A stretch of DNA of 64,000 bases, taken from IMG/VR virus record IMGVR_UViG_3300042397_000787; one strand, 5' to 3'. Shown here piece by piece: positions 876 through 7,147 of the stretch. This DNA is from a virus. A program made the translations under genes and the position numbers. Under the pieces are notes generated by a model that was not told where the DNA came from, made no database searches, and saw nothing but the letters and a program-made list of their open reading frames with translations. Each line of letters begins with the position of its first letter. The first letter of the stretch is position 1.

Positions 876-963
876 TGGAGGAAGCGGTGGGATTCGAACC
901 CACGGTACCTTGCGGTACGACAGTTTTCAAGACTGTAGGTTTCAACCGCTCACCCACGCTTCC
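876..963 (-). tRNA. tRNA-Ser(TGA)
   Basis: GGAAGCG acceptor, anticodon loop CTTGAAA, long variable arm, GGTTCGAATCC, encoded CCA. Confidence 0.95.
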
Positions 964-967
964 AATA

Positions 968-1204
968 TTATACGCCCACGGCGCTACGATATGTATCTAG
1001 GATCATATCTTCTTCCTGTCTCACATGTGCTTCCAGCTTACGGAGACGCACAATCTTACGAACGGCCTTGGTATCAAACCCTTCACCCTTCAATTCAGAA
1101 TAGACTTCCTTACGGTCAATCTTCTTCACATCAATCTCGGCTTCGATGTTTTCAATACGCTCAATGAACAGGCGAAGTTGGTCTACTGCAATAATATCAC
1201 TCAT
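968..1204 (-). CDS. gapR: GapR/DUF2312 family nucleoid-associated DNA-binding protein
   Basis: QLRLFIERIENIE...KEVYSELKGEGFDTKAVRKIVRLRK...EEDMILDTY matches the family signature. Confidence 0.88.
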   Translation of the reverse strand: MSDIIAVDQLRLFIERIENIEAEIDVKKIDRKEVYSELKGEGFDTKAVRKIVRLRKLEAHVRQEEDMILDTYRSAVGV

Positions 1205-1225
1205 TATATATGTCCTTAAAAAAGA

Positions 1226-1301
1226 TGGATGCCCCTCCAGGGCTCGAACCTGGACTCTTCGGAATCAAAATCCAACGTGTTGCCAATTACACCAAGGGGC
1301 A
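1226..1301 (-). tRNA. tRNA-Gln(TTG)
   Basis: TGCCCCT acceptor, anticodon loop TTTTGAT, T-loop TTCGAGC, CCA. Confidence 0.93.
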
Positions 1302-1302
1302 A

Positions 1303-1378
1303 TGGTACGGGATGACGGGCTCGAACCGCCGACATTCTGCGTGTAAAGCAGACGCTCTACCAACTGAGCTAATCCCGC
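1303..1378 (-). tRNA. tRNA-Val(TAC)
   Basis: Canonical cloverleaf, anticodon loop TTTACAC, CCA. Confidence 0.95.
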
Positions 1379-2046
1379 GTAATTATGACCAGATCTTGTC
1401 TCCAGTCATTTGATATTATAGTCGTTTTATTGTATTTGTCAAGCATTTTTGAAAAATAATCAACGTTATAATATGTCCACAAGAAACGAACATTTTCTTG
1501 AGGAAACTCTTGTGTTATTTTAGACTTTGTTTTACCATCTACGTCACATTGATAGACGTAACAATAGTCCATATTTTCATGCTCTGGGAAAAATCTAAGA
1601 AGTCCTATTTCACCATAAACGGTTTCAGTATCTTTTCCGTATGCTGTCCAAGAAATTAACATTTTTCCGTTTTCGGCCAAGTGACTATAAAGCCACTCTA
1701 TTAGGGTCAACATCTCTTCTTTTGAAGTATGTGTGAAGACACTATGCGCTATGATTAAATCATACTTTTCTTCTATTACTGGAAGTTGTTCTTTTCCTCC
1801 AGGATTATATTCTGGATTAAATCCGTCATAATGGATGAAGTTTGCACCAGGAAACATACGTCTTCCTGTTTCAATTGCATCCTCACAGATATCAATGCCA
1901 GTATAATTTTCTTGAGGAAAAGATCCGTTAGAAGTTTCTAGAAATATACCATAGTTGCAACCAAAATCTAATACCTTTCGTTCATCGACATCTGGTATCA
2001 TATCTTTTATCACAGTATGAATGGGCAAATAATAGTGTATTAGCAT
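1369..2046 (-). CDS. Class I SAM-dependent methyltransferase
   Basis: VLDFGCNYG motif I, YTGIDI, YDLIIAHSVFTH. Confidence 0.85.
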   Translation of the reverse strand: MLIHYYLPIHTVIKDMIPDVDERKVLDFGCNYGIFLETSNGSFPQENYTGIDICEDAIETGRRMFPGANFIHYDGFNPEYNPGGKEQLPVIEEKYDLIIAHSVFTHTSKEEMLTLIEWLYSHLAENGKMLISWTAYGKDTETVYGEIGLLRFFPEHENMDYCYVYQCDVDGKTKSKITQEFPQENVRFLWTYYNVDYFSKMLDKYNKTTIISNDWRQDLVIITRD

Positions 2047-2487
2047 TTAGTGCCTCACTACATGGTCGGCAGCATGTGTTGCCGCAAACGAATCGGGTTT
2101 GATTTTAGCATCAATCCCTGTTGTTCCCTTAACATACCCCAATGCTTCTTTAACAGCAATGTTAGATTTATGCTTGGGATCTGGATTGATATCAAGGTGG
2201 ATTTCTAGATGCCGATTGCCAATTACATCAACAATTTCAGTTGCTGCTTCGATGGCAAATCCTGCTTCGGTAATCAGACGTTGACGTAAGTTACCAAAGT
2301 CACGCATTTCTACGTTTCTAGAAAATATTTTACCGCCATGCTTAGAATCCATGTGAAGAATAATGACGGTGGAATACTTGGCGTACCACTCACCGCTACG
2401 CTTTTTGAATCTAATAGAATCAGCACCTATATAAACAGATGACGTTTCACTGGAGTTTAGAATTGCTTCTCTTGCCTCATCATACAT
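2047..2487 (-). CDS. RNase H-like YkuK/DUF458 family protein
   Basis: VYIGADS, RLITEA, EIHLDINP, ATHAADH motifs. Confidence 0.75.
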   Translation of the reverse strand: MYDEAREAILNSSETSSVYIGADSIRFKKRSGEWYAKYSTVIILHMDSKHGGKIFSRNVEMRDFGNLRQRLITEAGFAIEAATEIVDVIGNRHLEIHLDINPDPKHKSNIAVKEALGYVKGTTGIDAKIKPDSFAATHAADHVVRH

Positions 2488-2505
2488 GCGTCACCTGTTT
2501 ATAAA

Positions 2506-2579
2506 TGGCGAAGGTGCCGGGATTCGAACCCGGAACGACGGTTTTGGAGACCGTAATGATACCATTTCACTACACCAAC
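2506..2579 (-). tRNA. tRNA-Trp(CCA)
   Basis: Anticodon loop CTCCAAA, T-arm CCGGG-TTCGAAT-CCCGG, CCA; two U-U mismatches in the acceptor stem. Confidence 0.88.
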
Positions 2580-2586
2580 AAAAAAA

Positions 2587-2663
2587 TGGTCTGGAATGTA
2601 GGATTCGAACCTACGACCCCCTGCTCCCAAAGCAGGTGCGCTACCAGGCTGCGCTAATCCCAG
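2587..2663 (-). tRNA. tRNA-Pro(TGG)
   Basis: Canonical cloverleaf, anticodon loop TTTGGGA, CCA. Confidence 0.95.
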
Positions 2664-2672
2664 AAACTTTAG

Positions 2673-2861
2673 TTACTTTGAATCTGCTTGTGGAGTTGCT
2701 TCCGACGCAACAACTTCTACAGTTTCTGTTGCATTTGCTGTAGCAAGTGCAGCATCAGCCGCTGGGCCAGCAGCTTCCGATACAGATGGTGTTTCCGCGG
2801 TAGGAGCGCAAGCGGCAGTAAGAGCGGCAACTGCGAGAACCATAAAAGTCTTGATATTCAT
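2673..2861 (-). CDS. Small Ala-rich lipoprotein
   Basis: Signal peptide with lipobox LTAA-C followed by a low-complexity Ala/Thr/Glu tail; upstream AAGGA RBS. Confidence 0.7.
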   Translation of the reverse strand: MNIKTFMVLAVAALTAACAPTAETPSVSEAAGPAADAALATANATETVEVVASEATPQADSK

Positions 2862-2918
2862 AATTAATTCCTTGGTTGTTATATGAAATTATCGCGCATC
2901 TAACATTCGTGATAATTC

Positions 2919-3000
2919 TGGAGCCCAAGATAGGATTCGAACCTACATCTTACTTCCAGTTACCTTTGGCTCCGTTCGTAGCGGAGAGGGATACTTGGGC
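2919..3000 (-). tRNA. Non-canonical tRNA-like RNA, anticodon ACG (Arg), D-arm absent from its normal position
   Basis: GCCCAAG/CTTGGGC acceptor + TCCA; CTCCG-CTACGAA-CGGAG anticodon arm; GTAGG-TTCGAAT-CCTAT T-arm; 7-nt 5' connector and 23-nt 3' connector. Confidence 0.8.
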
Positions 3001-3005
3001 AAACT

Positions 3006-3078
3006 TGGAGCGACCGATGGGATTCGAACCCACTCCGTCAGCTTGGAAGGCTGAGTCCTCACCCAGGAGAACAGTCGC
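3006..3078 (-). tRNA. tRNA-Gly(TCC), atypical D-arm
   Basis: GCGACTG/CGGTCGC acceptor, U73, anticodon loop CTTCCAA; D region TTCTCCTGGGTGAGGA. Confidence 0.85.
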
Positions 3079-3084
3079 ATTTAT

Positions 3085-3393
3085 CTAAATGCTGGCTCTA
3101 ATAGCTATGACAGTTTGCACATCATAGAAATCATCTTGGTCTAGACCTTCTGATTCAAGAGTTACAACTTCTGCTTCATCGATGAATGTTATTCTGGAAT
3201 CTGCAAGCTCTCTTGCAACACAAGCCTGTGCCGCTGCCTGCGTAGAATACAAAGTGCAGAGAGGATTTCCAGGCTTTACACCTAGAAAATCAGTATCATC
3301 AATTAGACTATCGAACTTTTCAGCCAGATCGTTACCTGCTAGAGAGTTGTAATGGTTAGCATTATTAACAAAAAATTTAGCGATATATGCCAT
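3085..3393 (-). CDS. Hypothetical protein, paralog of 3419..3706
   Basis: ORF with AGGA RBS; shares motifs with its neighbour. Confidence 0.7.
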   Translation of the reverse strand: MAYIAKFFVNNANHYNSLAGNDLAEKFDSLIDDTDFLGVKPGNPLCTLYSTQAAAQACVARELADSRITFIDEAEVVTLESEGLDQDDFYDVQTVIAIRASI

Positions 3394-3418
3394 TGCTTTT
3401 TTCCTGCTCTTTTATGTA

Positions 3419-3706
3419 TTAATTGTCGGGAACATAGAAATCGCTGACCGCTAAGCCATCAGCATCTTCTAGAGGCATTACGGTGGTAGTCGGTTGACCA
3501 CCGATTACAAGAGGATCTGCCCGATGACTTTCTGCAAAAGCATAGGCATTTTCTGCCGTGTCGAATAGAAAATATGTGGTCATGCCGCCTTTTAGGCCGA
3601 TGAAGCCAGTTCTGCTTTTCCAATCATCATTTCGACTCTTTTTTGCCTCGGGTGAATGGTCAATGTGATTAACTTGAACCAAGGTACATTTTACAACATA
3701 AGACAT
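3419..3706 (-). CDS. Hypothetical protein, paralog of 3085..3393
   Basis: ORF with GGAGA RBS downstream of a late promoter. Confidence 0.7.
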   Translation of the reverse strand: MSYVVKCTLVQVNHIDHSPEAKKSRNDDWKSRTGFIGLKGGMTTYFLFDTAENAYAFAESHRADPLVIGGQPTTTVMPLEDADGLAVSDFYVPDN

Positions 3707-3738
3707 AAATTTTCTCCAACAATGGGTATCTCTATCGC

Positions 3739-3746
3739 TATTTATA
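3739..3746 (-). promoter_or_regulatory. T4-type late promoter TATAAATA
   Basis: Exact gp55 consensus upstream of 3419..3706. Confidence 0.65.
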
Positions 3747-3750
3747 ACAT

Positions 3751-3827
3751 TGGCGACTCGGACGGGACTTGAACCCGCAACTTCCAGCGTGACAGGCTGG
3801 TGCTCTAACCAATTGAACTACCGAGCC
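3751..3827 (-). tRNA. tRNA-Asp(GTC)
   Basis: Canonical cloverleaf, anticodon loop CTGTCAC, CCA. Confidence 0.95.
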
Positions 3828-3833
3828 TTATAT

Positions 3834-3918
3834 TGGTGGGCCAGTGAGGTATCGATCCTCCCCCGAAGACGGACGAGATTTACAGTCTCGCTGCTAGAGC
3901 CACTAGCTTTACCGACCC
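3834..3918 (-). tRNA. tRNA-Tyr(GTA), atypical D-arm and T-loop
   Basis: Anticodon loop CTGTAAA, variable arm CCG-TCTT-CGG, T-loop ATCGATA, 5-bp D-stem GCTAG/CTAGC, ACCA. Confidence 0.85.
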
Positions 3919-3923
3919 AAAAA

Positions 3924-3999
3924 TGGTGCTCCCGAACGGATTCGAACCGCTGACACGTGGTTCTTCAAACCACTGCTCTACCAACTGAGCTACAGGAGC
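3924..3999 (-). tRNA. tRNA-Phe(GAA)
   Basis: Canonical cloverleaf, anticodon loop TTGAAGA, CCA. Confidence 0.95.
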
Positions 4000-4006
4000 G
4001 TAATAG

Positions 4007-4089
4007 TGGTACGCCTAGAGGGACTCGAACCCCCACGCTTTCGCACTGGTACCTAAAACCAGCGTGTCTACCAATTCCACCATAGGCGC
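4007..4089 (-). tRNA. tRNA-Leu(TAG)
   Basis: Anticodon loop TTTAGGT, variable arm, CCA. Confidence 0.93.
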
Positions 4090-4098
4090 AAAAAGAGC

Positions 4099-4211
4099 GA
4101 CCACCTGCAGTGTGCCTTGATCGAATTACGTCCGGGCGCTTCGATCTTCCCAGATAAAGAATACTGTTGCAACAGTATCTCTACCCCTTCGCGGGTTCAG
4201 CAGAGGTGGTC
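4099..4211 (-). ncRNA. Unassigned structured ncRNA (multi-stem, possible pseudoknot)
   Basis: Closing stem GACCACCT/AGGTGGTC enclosing three hairpins; fills the spacer between two tRNAs. Confidence 0.65.
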
Positions 4212-4216
4212 TAACT

Positions 4217-4292
4217 TGGTGGAGAATAACGGGTTCGAACCGTTGACATCCAGCTTGCAAAGCTGGCGCTCTACCAACTGAGCTAATTCCCC
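4217..4292 (-). tRNA. tRNA-Ala(TGC)
   Basis: GGGGAAT acceptor with G3-U70, anticodon loop TTTGCAA, CCA. Confidence 0.95.
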
Positions 4293-4300
4293 AAAACTTA

Positions 4301-4534
4301 TTATTTTTTATAAGAGTTAATATATTTTTGGTATTCTTTGTTTGGATGATTTACCAATCGTTTATGGTACAGATCAATTATAGTTTTTGCGGCCGTACCA
4401 GGCAACAGATTAGGAAAAAATCCATGTATGAAACTTGCTAATGCTGCCCAAAGTAATCTCAGTCCAGCCGAATTTGCAAAAACAAAATGGCTTAAATAAG
4501 TTTCTTTGCTTTTTTCTAAGTGTTCTCTAAACAT
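4301..4534 (-). CDS. DUF6356-like small protein
   Basis: HLEKSKETYLSH...ASFIHGFFP pattern. Confidence 0.6.
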   Translation of the reverse strand: MFREHLEKSKETYLSHFVFANSAGLRLLWAALASFIHGFFPNLLPGTAAKTIIDLYHKRLVNHPNKEYQKYINSYKK

Positions 4535-5982
4535 CTAAAAAATTCCCTCATTAATTCTTTATCTAACTTGACTCCAAAATAGTAATCTTTGAAATCCAGA
4601 ATTGCAAACTTATCTATACGAACTAGATTGGTTCCGTGATGAAAGAGAATTGCAGCATCTATTTCCATAACTAATTCGTTTATATCTTTATCATAAGACG
4701 AGTTGATTGCTAGATAGATTTGGTTTTCGATAATATCTATAACAACAGAAACGTTGTTATCATATTTAGCAGAAATATTTTCAAGGAATGGCAAGTCTAC
4801 TGTAGTATCATTGATACGAATGACATCGGTGCGCCCGGTATGTTTATACTCATGCCAGTGGGCTTTTACCTTCACGAACTTATCATTCGTAGCTACCGTC
4901 TTATCATAAACGGGCATGTGAACTAAGAGACCGCCTTCTTCATCGAAAGAAACGCCATAGAAAGCATCTGGTTTAAAAAACTCGGTGTTATCAAAAGTAT
5001 CGGCATTAACCGCGGTTAATCTGGACAACAGAAGTGGTCCAGCAGTTTCATTGCAACCAAAAACACTTTCTATGCTTTCAACATAACCTTCTTTCACATA
5101 TTTCGTATAATCATATGGAATGTAAGACAGAAGATCCAAACGCATATTTGGATATTTTACGCCGTGATTTTCCAACGAAGTAAAAAACTTATCGGAAAGA
5201 TCCCTATATGATAAAGTGGCATGATTGATATCTTGGTCCTTCAAAGTCAGGACTAAGTTATCAAGAATTTCCGCGCGGTGTGACATAAGATAGTGGTTCT
5301 TTACCGCATCGCTATGCAACGAAGGTAAGAAAAACACACTCAAACTACTACCGTGATTAAGGTTTCTGCTATGCAGAACGTTACCCGAAAATCTCGACGA
5401 ATTTCTCTTACACAATTCATAGAAAAATCTATGTGTATGTGTAAGTAGCTTCGGAGTATTTGTGGTACCGCTGCTGGTGCATATCATTAAAGTATCGTCT
5501 GGGTGCGGCCGAATTACAGAGATTTCATCAAATCTTTTTTGATTGTCAACTGTAATAAGACGCAAATCCTCAATGCTAAATGATTTATTGCAATAGTCTA
5601 TGAACCACGCGGATTTAGAATATGAATAACCGGCAGCATCATGAATATAGATGTTGATAGGCGACAGTAACTTAACTTTAGGATTTACCTTATCACTAGC
5701 CAGATATGCTGGCAGTTGATCCGCAATAGTAACTACCAAGGACAACTCGAAACTGGCAAAACAAAGGGCAAGATAGTCACTATCTACCACTAGTAGTCCG
5801 ATAAGAATCCTATCGCCTTTTTTGGCGCCGCATGTTTCAGTTAAAACATACTTCCAATGGTCAATCTTCTTGACCAATTCATCTTTATTAATCGAATCTG
5901 GTGTGGGGTATTCTGTTGCAAGAGGACTAATGTCTACGCTTTGATAATTGTCCGAGATAAAATCTCTCGTTAAAGTCTGCAT
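4516..5982 (-). CDS. ANL-superfamily adenylate-forming (AMP-binding) enzyme
   Basis: TSSGTTNTPK (A3), FGCNET (A5), ATND (A7), TGRTD (A8), GVKLDK (A10). Start moved to MQTLTR, which has a GGAGA RBS. Confidence 0.85.
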   Translation of the reverse strand: MQTLTRDFISDNYQSVDISPLATEYPTPDSINKDELVKKIDHWKYVLTETCGAKKGDRILIGLLVVDSDYLALCFASFELSLVVTIADQLPAYLASDKVNPKVKLLSPINIYIHDAAGYSYSKSAWFIDYCNKSFSIEDLRLITVDNQKRFDEISVIRPHPDDTLMICTSSGTTNTPKLLTHTHRFFYELCKRNSSRFSGNVLHSRNLNHGSSLSVFFLPSLHSDAVKNHYLMSHRAEILDNLVLTLKDQDINHATLSYRDLSDKFFTSLENHGVKYPNMRLDLLSYIPYDYTKYVKEGYVESIESVFGCNETAGPLLLSRLTAVNADTFDNTEFFKPDAFYGVSFDEEGGLLVHMPVYDKTVATNDKFVKVKAHWHEYKHTGRTDVIRINDTTVDLPFLENISAKYDNNVSVVIDIIENQIYLAINSSYDKDINELVMEIDAAILFHHGTNLVRIDKFAILDFKDYYFGVKLDKELMREFFRCLENT

Positions 5983-6010
5983 AACATCTCCATTGTTTAA
6001 AACATAAAGC

Positions 6011-6159
6011 GAAGTGGGTGGATTCGGATATACCACCAAGCAACTAGCCAAATACCTATGTATCTATTTCGTCGCCACGACTCGTTAGCTGGTTAAGCAG
6101 GAGACCAATCCCCGAGTCTACCTTATCCCCTCTGGCAGGAGAGTATTCAGTCACACTTC
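6011..6159 (-). ncRNA. Structured ncRNA, possibly manA-motif-like
   Basis: Closing stem GAAGTG/CACTTC; internal helices GACTCG/CGAGTC, GGCGAC/GTTGCT, TAGATAC/GTATTTG, GGTGG/CCACC. Confidence 0.65.
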
Positions 6160-6185
6160 TTACAGCCTCCGTCGAGGCTGATATC

Positions 6186-6260
6186 TGGTTGCAGGAGTCG
6201 GACTTGAACCGACGACCTTCTGGTTATGAGCCAGACGAGCTACCACTGCTCCACCCTGCG
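6186..6260 (-). tRNA. tRNA-Met(CAT), initiator-like
   Basis: C1:A72 mismatch, anticodon loop CTCATAA, CCA. Confidence 0.92.
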
Positions 6261-6266
6261 TCAAAC

Positions 6267-6341
6267 TGGCTCCCTAAGATGGATTCGAACCACCGACCAA
6301 TTGATTAACAGTCAACTGCGCTACCGCTGCGCCATTAGGGA
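6267..6341 (-). tRNA. tRNA-Asn(GTT)
   Basis: TCCCTAA acceptor, anticodon loop CTGTTAA, GCCA. Confidence 0.95.
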
Positions 6342-6348
6342 ATAAAAA

Positions 6349-6424
<76 letters not shown>

Positions 6425-6640: not shown

Positions 6641-7147
6641 TCAAAAATCTTCTGGTCGATATGGGTCGTAAAATCTTCCCCACATCCAACCAGATGGTAG
6701 TATGAAAGTCAGTGGGTCTACCAAATGCGTTTTACCACTAGGGTCGACACACCACTTTCGTCTTCTATGTCTCGCCTTCATCGCTATGAGATTGCGAGTT
6801 TCCCATGATTGGCGTCTACCATACATAGGATTGTTTTCGTTGCGCCTTGTTCCTCGCATCTTGCGACGAATTTTGGCCTTTGTTTCTTCTTTCAAGCCAC
6901 CCCAGTTGGGGTTGTTGCTACCGCTTAACGCTAGAGCAATCTTTCGTTTATGCTCTGTTGTTAGATTTGGTATCTTCTTTCTAGCAACTTTATCCTTGAA
7001 TGTCAACCCTTTTTTTAAACTGTCTGCTTTTTCTCTGATATATTCGATATTAGAGTTTTGTAGCAACAGTTCTCTGGGTTTTGGTACCTGTTCCGGGTCC
7101 TTGACTAACCAGATTTCGCTTTTGTGTTTAAAGAGGAAGTATCTCAC
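6641..7147 (-). CDS. NUMOD3-motif DNA-binding protein (homing-endonuclease-derived)
   Basis: TEHKRKIALALSGSNNPNWG, EETKAKI...NPMYGRRQSWETR repeats. Confidence 0.7.
   Translation of the reverse strand: MRYFLFKHKSEIWLVKDPEQVPKPRELLLQNSNIEYIREKADSLKKGLTFKDKVARKKIPNLTTEHKRKIALALSGSNNPNWGGLKEETKAKIRRKMRGTRRNENNPMYGRRQSWETRNLIAMKARHRRRKWCVDPSGKTHLVDPLTFILPSGWMWGRFYDPYRPEDF

Follow-up and report, generated by a model that had tools for sequence, protein, structure and literature searches.

Cytosolic and bacterial tRNAs are generally considered to form a cloverleaf without exception, and to our knowledge departures from it are limited to organellar tRNAs which have lost arms and tRNAs with altered stem lengths. 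The D-armless mitochondrial tRNAs rely on a specialised organellar translation system, and processing of permuted tRNA genes restores a canonical mature tRNA. In D-armless mitochondrial tRNAs, a connector replacing the D arm, together with a short T arm, provides flexibility (PMC7609411), and a circularly permuted tRNA gene is permuted as a whole, with the 3' half located upstream of the 5' half (PMC3728597). A 2020 review of non-canonical tRNAs makes no mention of phages (PMC7609411). We describe here an 82-base element located in a 64,000-nt stretch of viral DNA (IMG/VR record IMGVR_UViG_3300042397_000787), the whole of which is referred to as the window, in which segments of a tRNA-Arg are present in a rearranged order; no description of this layout was found in the literature searched, including the same review (PMC7609411). 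Comparison of the element with its homologues indicates, with a probability of roughly 0.8, that it is a functional phage tRNA-Arg(ACG) with a circularly permuted anticodon/D domain, probably read as ICG.

The element extends from position 3000 to position 2919 on the minus strand. Inspection of this strand confirmed the preliminary description with respect to the acceptor, anticodon (ACG) and T arms and the CCA end, all of which are paired or intact, and to the usual D-arm site between position 9 and the anticodon stem, which is reduced to 7 nt and thus cannot form a D-arm hairpin. The 5' strand of the acceptor stem, GCCCAAG (tRNA positions 1-7; 2994-3000, minus strand as for all parts of the element), pairs with 2923-2929 and is followed by the 7-nt connector TATCCCT (UAUCCCU as RNA; 2987-2993), which joins the acceptor to the anticodon arm. 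The connector consists of U8 A9 (2992-2993) and of UCCCU (2987-2991), interpreted as canonical positions 22-26, in which C2990 and C2989 (positions 23 and 24) form strand A of a D-stem analogue. The anticodon arm, CUCCG-CUACGAA-CGGAG (2970-2986), carries the ACG anticodon at 2977-2979 and is followed by the linker CCAAA (2965-2969), the first four bases of which are interpreted as variable-loop positions 44-47 and the last A as position 10. Strand B of the D-stem analogue, GG (2963-2964; positions 11-12), covaries with 2989-2990 and is succeeded by the D-loop-like UAACUGGA (2955-2962), read as U13 A14 A15 C16 U17 G18 G19 A20 and represented in the family by the motif UAAYUGGA. This segment, situated 3' of the anticodon arm, has both the sequence and the position that a D-loop containing G18, G19 and A20 would be expected to have, in agreement with the preliminary description. 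The variable AGUAAG and an invariant AU follow (together 2947-2954), the U being interpreted as position 48 and the A possibly as position 21, and the element is completed by the T arm, GUAGG-UUCGAAU-CCUAU (2930-2946), and by the acceptor 3' strand CUUGGGC, the discriminator U and the encoded CCA (2919-2929). The 23 nt separating the anticodon arm from the T arm read CCAAAGGTAACTGGAAGTAAGAT as DNA and CCAAAGGUAACUGGAAGUAAGAU as RNA.

In the window element the D-stem analogue is limited to two G-C pairs, C2990-G2963 and C2989-G2964, flanked by U.U at 22-13 and C.A at 25-10, with position 26 unpaired. A canonical tRNA-Gly(UCC) is located 5 nt upstream on the same strand (3006-3078, minus); of all tRNAs in the cluster this neighbour scores lowest with Rfam (41.4 bits), and it has an irregular-looking D stem.

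Standard finders overlook the element, as had been anticipated. Default ARAGORN detects 14 canonical tRNAs in the window, 13 of which form a minus-strand cluster at 876-6424, and across the whole window the element is absent from its calls; it is also missed by the mitochondrial and intron modes, and a forced 92-nt Arg(acg) call is obtained solely in the relaxed -ps mode. In the whole-window scan Rfam RF00005 remained below its gathering score at the element, and on the element alone it yielded 25.0 bits versus a gathering cut-off of 29, from an alignment in which the D arm (15 model positions) is deleted and 20 nt past the anticodon arm are treated as an insertion. The remaining cloverleaf features are all present: a 7-bp acceptor, a 5-bp T stem with a T-loop and a 5-bp anticodon stem with a 7-nt loop. 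Within related loci, default ARAGORN overlaps 2 of 169 rewired elements, both of which are miscalled. No feature was annotated at the corresponding spot in any of the six phage records inspected, four of which were also confirmed with the covariance model described below (R1). Folding of the single sequence produced another 3-bp hairpin in place of the D-stem analogue (z-score -0.97), and RNAalifold returned three arms only, without the 2-bp D-stem analogue, the support for this helix being comparative. If such tRNAs function, phage inventories prepared with ARAGORN or cloverleaf models miss them, and decoders of Arg(CGN) codons are systematically undercounted.

BLAST of phage records revealed the same layout in Rhizobium phage RHph_I1_18, where the element is unannotated and compensatory substitutions are seen in both its acceptor stem and its T stem. 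Three pattern scans of viral contigs produced several hundred loci, from which 119 distinct full elements were extracted and aligned (alignments A1 and A2). One strand of the D-stem analogue was specified (AAGG) in two of the three patterns and neither strand in the third, the partner strand being left free throughout. The covariance model R1 was built from 84 of the 119 elements. The window element matched R1 over its full length (positions 1-82) with 96.3 bits, its own sequence being included in the seed (same genome as L002), as compared with at most 28.4 bits for the 14 canonical tRNAs of the window. Independent members outside the seed scored 64-90 bits, and canonical tRNAs in the window and the cultured-phage records did not exceed 32 bits. 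Applied to all collected loci, R1 returned 208 matches, of which 157 are distinct; they come from viral contigs, cultured phages and bacterial tRNA arrays. The 103.6-kb record of the phage itself contains a single copy. Cultured phages with R1 matches include Rhizobium RHph_I1_18 (86.7 bits), Xanthomonas XacN1 (77.8), Microbacterium A3Wally (69.7) and Streptomyces Mildred21 (64.5). Further cultured carriers were detected by BLAST only, namely Stenotrophomonas CM1 and RAS14, Xanthomonas Xoo-sp13 and many additional Streptomyces phages. For both groups of cultured phages, none of the listed records has an annotated feature at the matching site. In bacterial assemblies the rewired gene was observed at 15 loci, including three Bradyrhizobium isolates, where it lies within arrays of 13-22 tRNA genes. 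Identical or near-identical copies of the window element are present on contigs of many separate metagenomes, which excludes an assembly artefact.

Several features of individual loci were also recorded. In the Bradyrhizobium arrays (L223, L225 and L232, from Bradyrhizobium sp. C9, sp. Ai1a-2 and B. embrapense), the rewired Arg(ACG) occurs among 13-22 tRNAs within 8 kb, together with canonical Arg CCU, UCU and CCG; canonical ACG is absent. Just upstream of the tRNA cluster of RHph_I1_18 (L001, 1948-2414), ARAGORN reports two genes, one tmRNA-like and the other a tRNA whose anticodon has four bases (tatg), and the locus tag EVB91_035 is missing from this record exactly at the place of the rewired tRNA. 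At L075:5533-5617 (+), a weak R1 match (44.6 bits) has a connector and a linker of 11 nt each and an unusual anticodon loop; it may represent either another variant or a copy in decay. A subfamily (L003, L008, L015, L016, L033, L072, L088, L136 and others) contains an extra covarying hairpin between A20 and the AU preceding the T stem, for example GGACA-GAAA-UGUCC or GGAUA-GAAA-UAUCC, at the site where a class II variable arm would project.

Conservation across the 148 parsed members follows the proposed parts closely. U8 A9 is present as TA in all 148, the anticodon loop CUACGAA in 121 and UAAYUGGA in 133, nearly all remaining variants of the latter retaining GGA. The AU immediately 5' of the T stem is found in 146 members and an encoded CCA in 125, and the T-loop is canonical, being UUCGAAU in 71/148 and UUCRAnn in most others. 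Linker and strand B together measure 7 nt in 102/148, and the stretch following the D-loop motif varies from 4 to 21 nt across the family.

The three conventional helices and the D-stem analogue are each maintained by paired substitutions. In the 84 sequences of A2, 99.8% of positions in the acceptor stem, 100% in the anticodon stem, 100% in the T stem and 99.4% in the D-stem analogue are paired, and nearly every pair of the structure has changes on both sides, including 7/7 acceptor and 5/5 anticodon-stem pairs. The D-stem analogue joins connector columns 11-12 with columns 37-38, directly 5' of UAAYUGGA, and occurs as CG, GC, UA and AU pairs. None of 500 shuffles of A2 matched the observed covariation values, and sliding the structure by 1-3 columns reduced pairing from 91% to 34-44%. 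In a second, more divergent set, the D-stem analogue is 98.6% paired. Thus, covariation between the connector and the post-anticodon segment, which the preliminary description had proposed to seek with a covariance model built from homologues, is indeed present, as are abundant homologues of the same layout; the lack of either had been named as counting against its reading.

Counts anchored on the anticodon stem and the D-loop motif in the 148 parsed sequences define the register. Pair 23-12 is Watson-Crick in 147/148 (CG 105, AU 26, GC 11, UA 5) and pair 24-11 in 146/148 (CG 116, GC 23, AU 5, UA 2). The proposed pairing of the connector with the post-anticodon segment was therefore upheld by these counts, while its CCT/AGG register proved to be one base off: in the element the pairs are C11-G38 and C12-G37, one base further 5' on the connector, and among the 69 sequences which discriminate between the two, the first pair is Watson-Crick in 1 for CCT/AGG versus 69 for the shifted register. 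A shift of one base in the other direction fails as well. Extension of the element's helix by 22-13 and 25-10 was dropped, these positions being mostly U.U (Watson-Crick in 27/148) and mostly C.A (Watson-Crick in 51/148), respectively. Position 26 is paired with the second linker base in 99/148 members (CG 86, GC 10, UA 3); in the window element this combination is U.C. Other pairings were rejected. A CCA...UGG hairpin inside the 23-nt segment appears in the single-sequence fold, yet is not conserved in RHph_I1_18 or other members, and a T-like hairpin on the plus strand would not abut the acceptor stem.

Expressed in canonical numbering, the conserved bases suggest that the element follows the order [1-9][22-47][10-21][48-76], in which segment 10-47 would be circularly permuted at the 21|22 boundary. 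More fully, the chain would run [1-9][22-43][44-47][10-20][variable insert][A, U48][49-76]. The core bases retained under this numbering are U8, A14, A15, G18, G19, A20 and U48. Past U8 A9, the connector would supply D-stem positions 22-25 and position 26 and run straight into the anticodon stem; beyond this stem and a 4-nt linker, the chain would supply D-stem positions 10-13 and the D-loop bases A14, A15, G18, G19 and A20, before entering U48 and the T arm. Removal of any single stretch fails to restore the canonical order, and an intron, or processing back to a cloverleaf, was rejected on this basis. The mature RNA itself would consequently be non-canonical, since the permutation is limited to internal segment 10-47 and leaves the acceptor ends where they normally lie. 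Such a gene may have arisen when segment 10-47 was duplicated in tandem within the gene and the two outer halves were then lost.

The permuted chain appears compatible with an L-shape. In canonical tRNA, the positions concerned are brought into proximity by two base triples, 9-12-23 and 45-10-25, and by two stacked layers, 8-14-21 and 15-48, and by analogy the three new junctions (9 to 22, 47 to 10 and 21 to 48) would each join neighbours in the L-shape. The short D-stem analogue is predicted to stack on the anticodon stem, giving a branch of ten stacked layers, as counted for canonical tRNA. Partners for the U8-A14, A15-U48, G18-Psi55, G19-C56 and U54-A58 contacts are all present in the family sequences, and the relocated D-loop would still be able to make the first four of these and to present A20 to the host ArgRS. 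That the relocated D-loop would be equivalent in space to the canonical one is reasoned from canonical tRNA structure.

The family is nearly restricted to arginine anticodons, ACG occurring in 125 of the 148 sequences, UCU in 11, UCG in 7, CCU in 2 and GAU in 2. C35 is present in 145/148 members, and the base at position 36 is G in 132 of them and U in 15. In nearly all members an A directly follows the GG of the relocated D-loop motif, where it may be the spatial equivalent of A20. The discriminator is U in 71, G in 45, A in 32 and C in none; the window element has U, which is not the commonest discriminator of bacterial tRNA-Arg. The identity set of bacterial tRNA-Arg comprises A20, C35, G/U36 and A/G/U73, with A20 being the main bacterial ArgRS determinant (PMC9976931). 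Judged by this set, the ACG anticodon of the element provides C35 and a G36/U36 base, and its U73 is an accepted discriminator (PMC9976931). In sequence, the family thus matches the bacterial arginine identity set. The only clear Ile(GAU) member, L147:2425-2504 (-), has U and not A after G18 G19, and its discriminator is A. U20 and A73 are bacterial isoleucine determinants, and this single example, L147, suggests that position 20 contributes to identity in its relocated place as well.

Genomic context is consistent with a role in decoding. A canonical tRNA is located within 1.5 kb of 166 of the 169 rewired elements, and all 166 share the strand of their neighbours. Of the 156 loci that contain a rewired ACG gene, no more than 3 also have a canonical Arg(ACG). 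Among 55 loci with at least 18 canonical tRNAs, canonical acg was found in 1, and arginine is the least represented amino acid; the rewired gene fills this gap in the tRNA set. Where at least two rewired genes share a locus, as observed in 15 loci, their anticodons always differ. The 103.6-kb phage record encodes 24 canonical tRNAs for 18 amino acids, and since its sole canonical Arg tRNA is UCU, the phage has no canonical CGN reader. In 20 long ORFs of the phage, arginine codons are CGT (38.5%), CGC (29.3%), CGA (7.7%) and AGA (18.3%), CGU, CGC and CGA together accounting for 75%. The phage is T4-like, having a family B DNA polymerase, a portal protein, a gp41-type helicase and an SbcCD-like nuclease. 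An ArgRS gene was not found in the 103.6-kb record and charging would therefore fall to the host enzyme. We envisage that the RNA would be cut from a polycistronic tRNA transcript and charged with arginine, and that deamination of A34 would generate ICG, allowing the charged RNA to read CGU, CGC and CGA, the phage's commonest arginine codons.

Other features of the cluster region were observed in the window. A manA RNA motif (Rfam RF01745, 65.1 bits) at 6007-6179 (-) is situated immediately upstream of a 511-aa ORF (4516-6051, -) and overlaps its start; this ORF has a weak match to AMP-binding (ANL) proteins, and another ANL-like ORF (1-861) runs off the window. Two ORFs are interspersed between tRNA genes of the cluster (1369-2487, -), one of SAM-methyltransferase type (1369-2046) and one RNase H-like (PF04308; 2047-2487). 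At the cluster edge, an ORF at 6641-7147 (-) contains motifs of NUMOD3, a homing-endonuclease DNA-binding module.

Rejection by standard finders is what a decayed or mis-assembled tRNA-Arg, with its D arm deleted and a chance insertion, would also produce. This explanation is refuted by the comparative data and retains a negligible probability, as 157 distinct homologues have the same layout with compensatory changes in all helices, identical copies are present in many separate metagenomes and the element occurs in finished genomes of cultured phages. The preliminary view that the element is a rewired tRNA-Arg(ACG) and not a product of decay is thus sustained by abundant homologues with covarying helices. 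A role other than decoding is harder to dismiss but is still improbable. A tRNA-like RNA could be maintained as a regulator, or as a decoy or sponge directed at a host nuclease or at a defence protein that binds tRNA, mimicking tRNA-Arg while remaining uncharged and off the ribosome; its unusual core could in principle block some translation step, and phage tRNAs are known to interact with tRNA-targeting defences, those of T5 differing from the E. coli tRNAs around the D-loop (PMC12475279). A decoy would, however, need none of the translation features that are conserved here, namely the 7+5 bp acceptor/T branch, the CCA in 125/148, U33, A37, the ArgRS determinants as far as sequence goes and the ten stacked layers predicted. 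Nor would it need copies sharing a locus to differ always in their arginine anticodon, the rewired gene to replace canonical Arg(ACG) in otherwise near-complete tRNA sets, or the anticodon to fit the main arginine codons of the phage. The decoy role, which the preliminary description had offered beside decoding, is therefore disfavoured, the arginine anticodons, complementary isoacceptors, filled gap and codon match all pointing to a working decoder.

Whether a working tRNA-Arg was rewired under selection is a refinement of the preferred reading, not an alternative to it. Rewiring may have allowed escape from a host factor that reads the canonical D arm or elbow, or may have rendered the gene immune to a homing endonuclease cutting canonical tRNA-Arg genes. 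The layout occurs only in phages and in tRNA arrays of phage-like character, with hosts from several bacterial phyla, and many phage tRNA clusters carry homing-endonuclease genes, such as a Seg-like gene in RHph_I1_18, the HNH genes in A3Wally and the NUMOD3 ORF at 6641-7147. Against this, 121 of the 125 ACG members retain CUACGAA, the usual Arg(ICG) anticodon loop of bacteria, so a nuclease reading this loop would not be escaped, and the evasion of anti-tRNA defences suggested in the preliminary description gains no support from the data. In addition, no endonuclease gene adjoins the element, the nearest candidate lying 3.6 kb away. No defence system targeting the D arm of tRNA-Arg was found in the literature searched, and we know of none. 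Taken by itself, this selective scenario is doubtful. For the working decoder in general, sequence comparison makes it likely that the element exemplifies a natural elongator tRNA which serves ordinary bacterial translation and has no cloverleaf, with the order [1-9][22-47][10-21][48-76], in which the L-shape and the ArgRS contact with A20 would be rebuilt, and which has become dispersed among phages of Proteobacteria and Actinobacteria and has also entered bacterial tRNA arrays; in its boldest version, this layout would have been selected to defeat a host factor or endonuclease that recognises the canonical tRNA-Arg D arm or the corresponding gene. If this is true, the L-shape can be reached from another chain topology, and ArgRS, RNase P, EF-Tu, the ribosome and probably TadA tolerate a permuted one. 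The rewired tRNA would represent a natural scaffold for orthogonal tRNA engineering and a test case for the evolution of tRNA architecture.

Like the metazoan mitochondrial D-armless tRNAs, for example mt-tRNA-Ser(AGY/UCU), the element has a short connector in place of the D arm and an extended anticodon helix (PMC7609411). Unlike these, the family keeps the D-loop motif G18 G19 A20, in a relocated position, and a canonical T-loop, and it occurs in phages of ordinary bacteria. With respect to the mitochondrial D-armless type, in which the D-loop is lacking and the T arm is short, as in A. suum mt-tRNA-Ser (PMC7609411), the element differs in that a G18 G19 motif and UUCGAAU are present. Its segment order departs from the canonical one, as does that of the circularly permuted tRNA genes outlined for Cyanidioschyzon merolae and some archaea (PMC3728597, PMC5733544); unlike in those genes, the acceptor ends occupy their normal place and only internal segment 10-47 is permuted. 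The allo-tRNAs and the 8/4 or 9/3 tRNAs of bacteria and phages are likewise natural non-canonical tRNAs, some of them encoded in phage tRNA clusters, in which acceptor and T stem lengths are altered but the cloverleaf remains, whereas the present family retains 7/5 and alters the order of the core (PMC5389517). The element also resembles canonical class I tRNA-Arg(ACG/ICG) of bacteria and phages, such as E. coli argQVYZ (RF00005), with which it has in common the 7-bp acceptor, 5-bp T stem, UUCGAAU and CUACGAA loop, as well as U8, A14, G18 G19, a putative A20, C35, G36, the encoded CCA and location in a tRNA cluster. Unlike canonical tRNA-Arg, it has no D hairpin between 9 and 26, positions 10-13 and the D-loop being located 3' of the anticodon arm, and its secondary structure is a three-way junction with a long 3' strand, in contrast to the cloverleaf of canonical tRNA-Arg.
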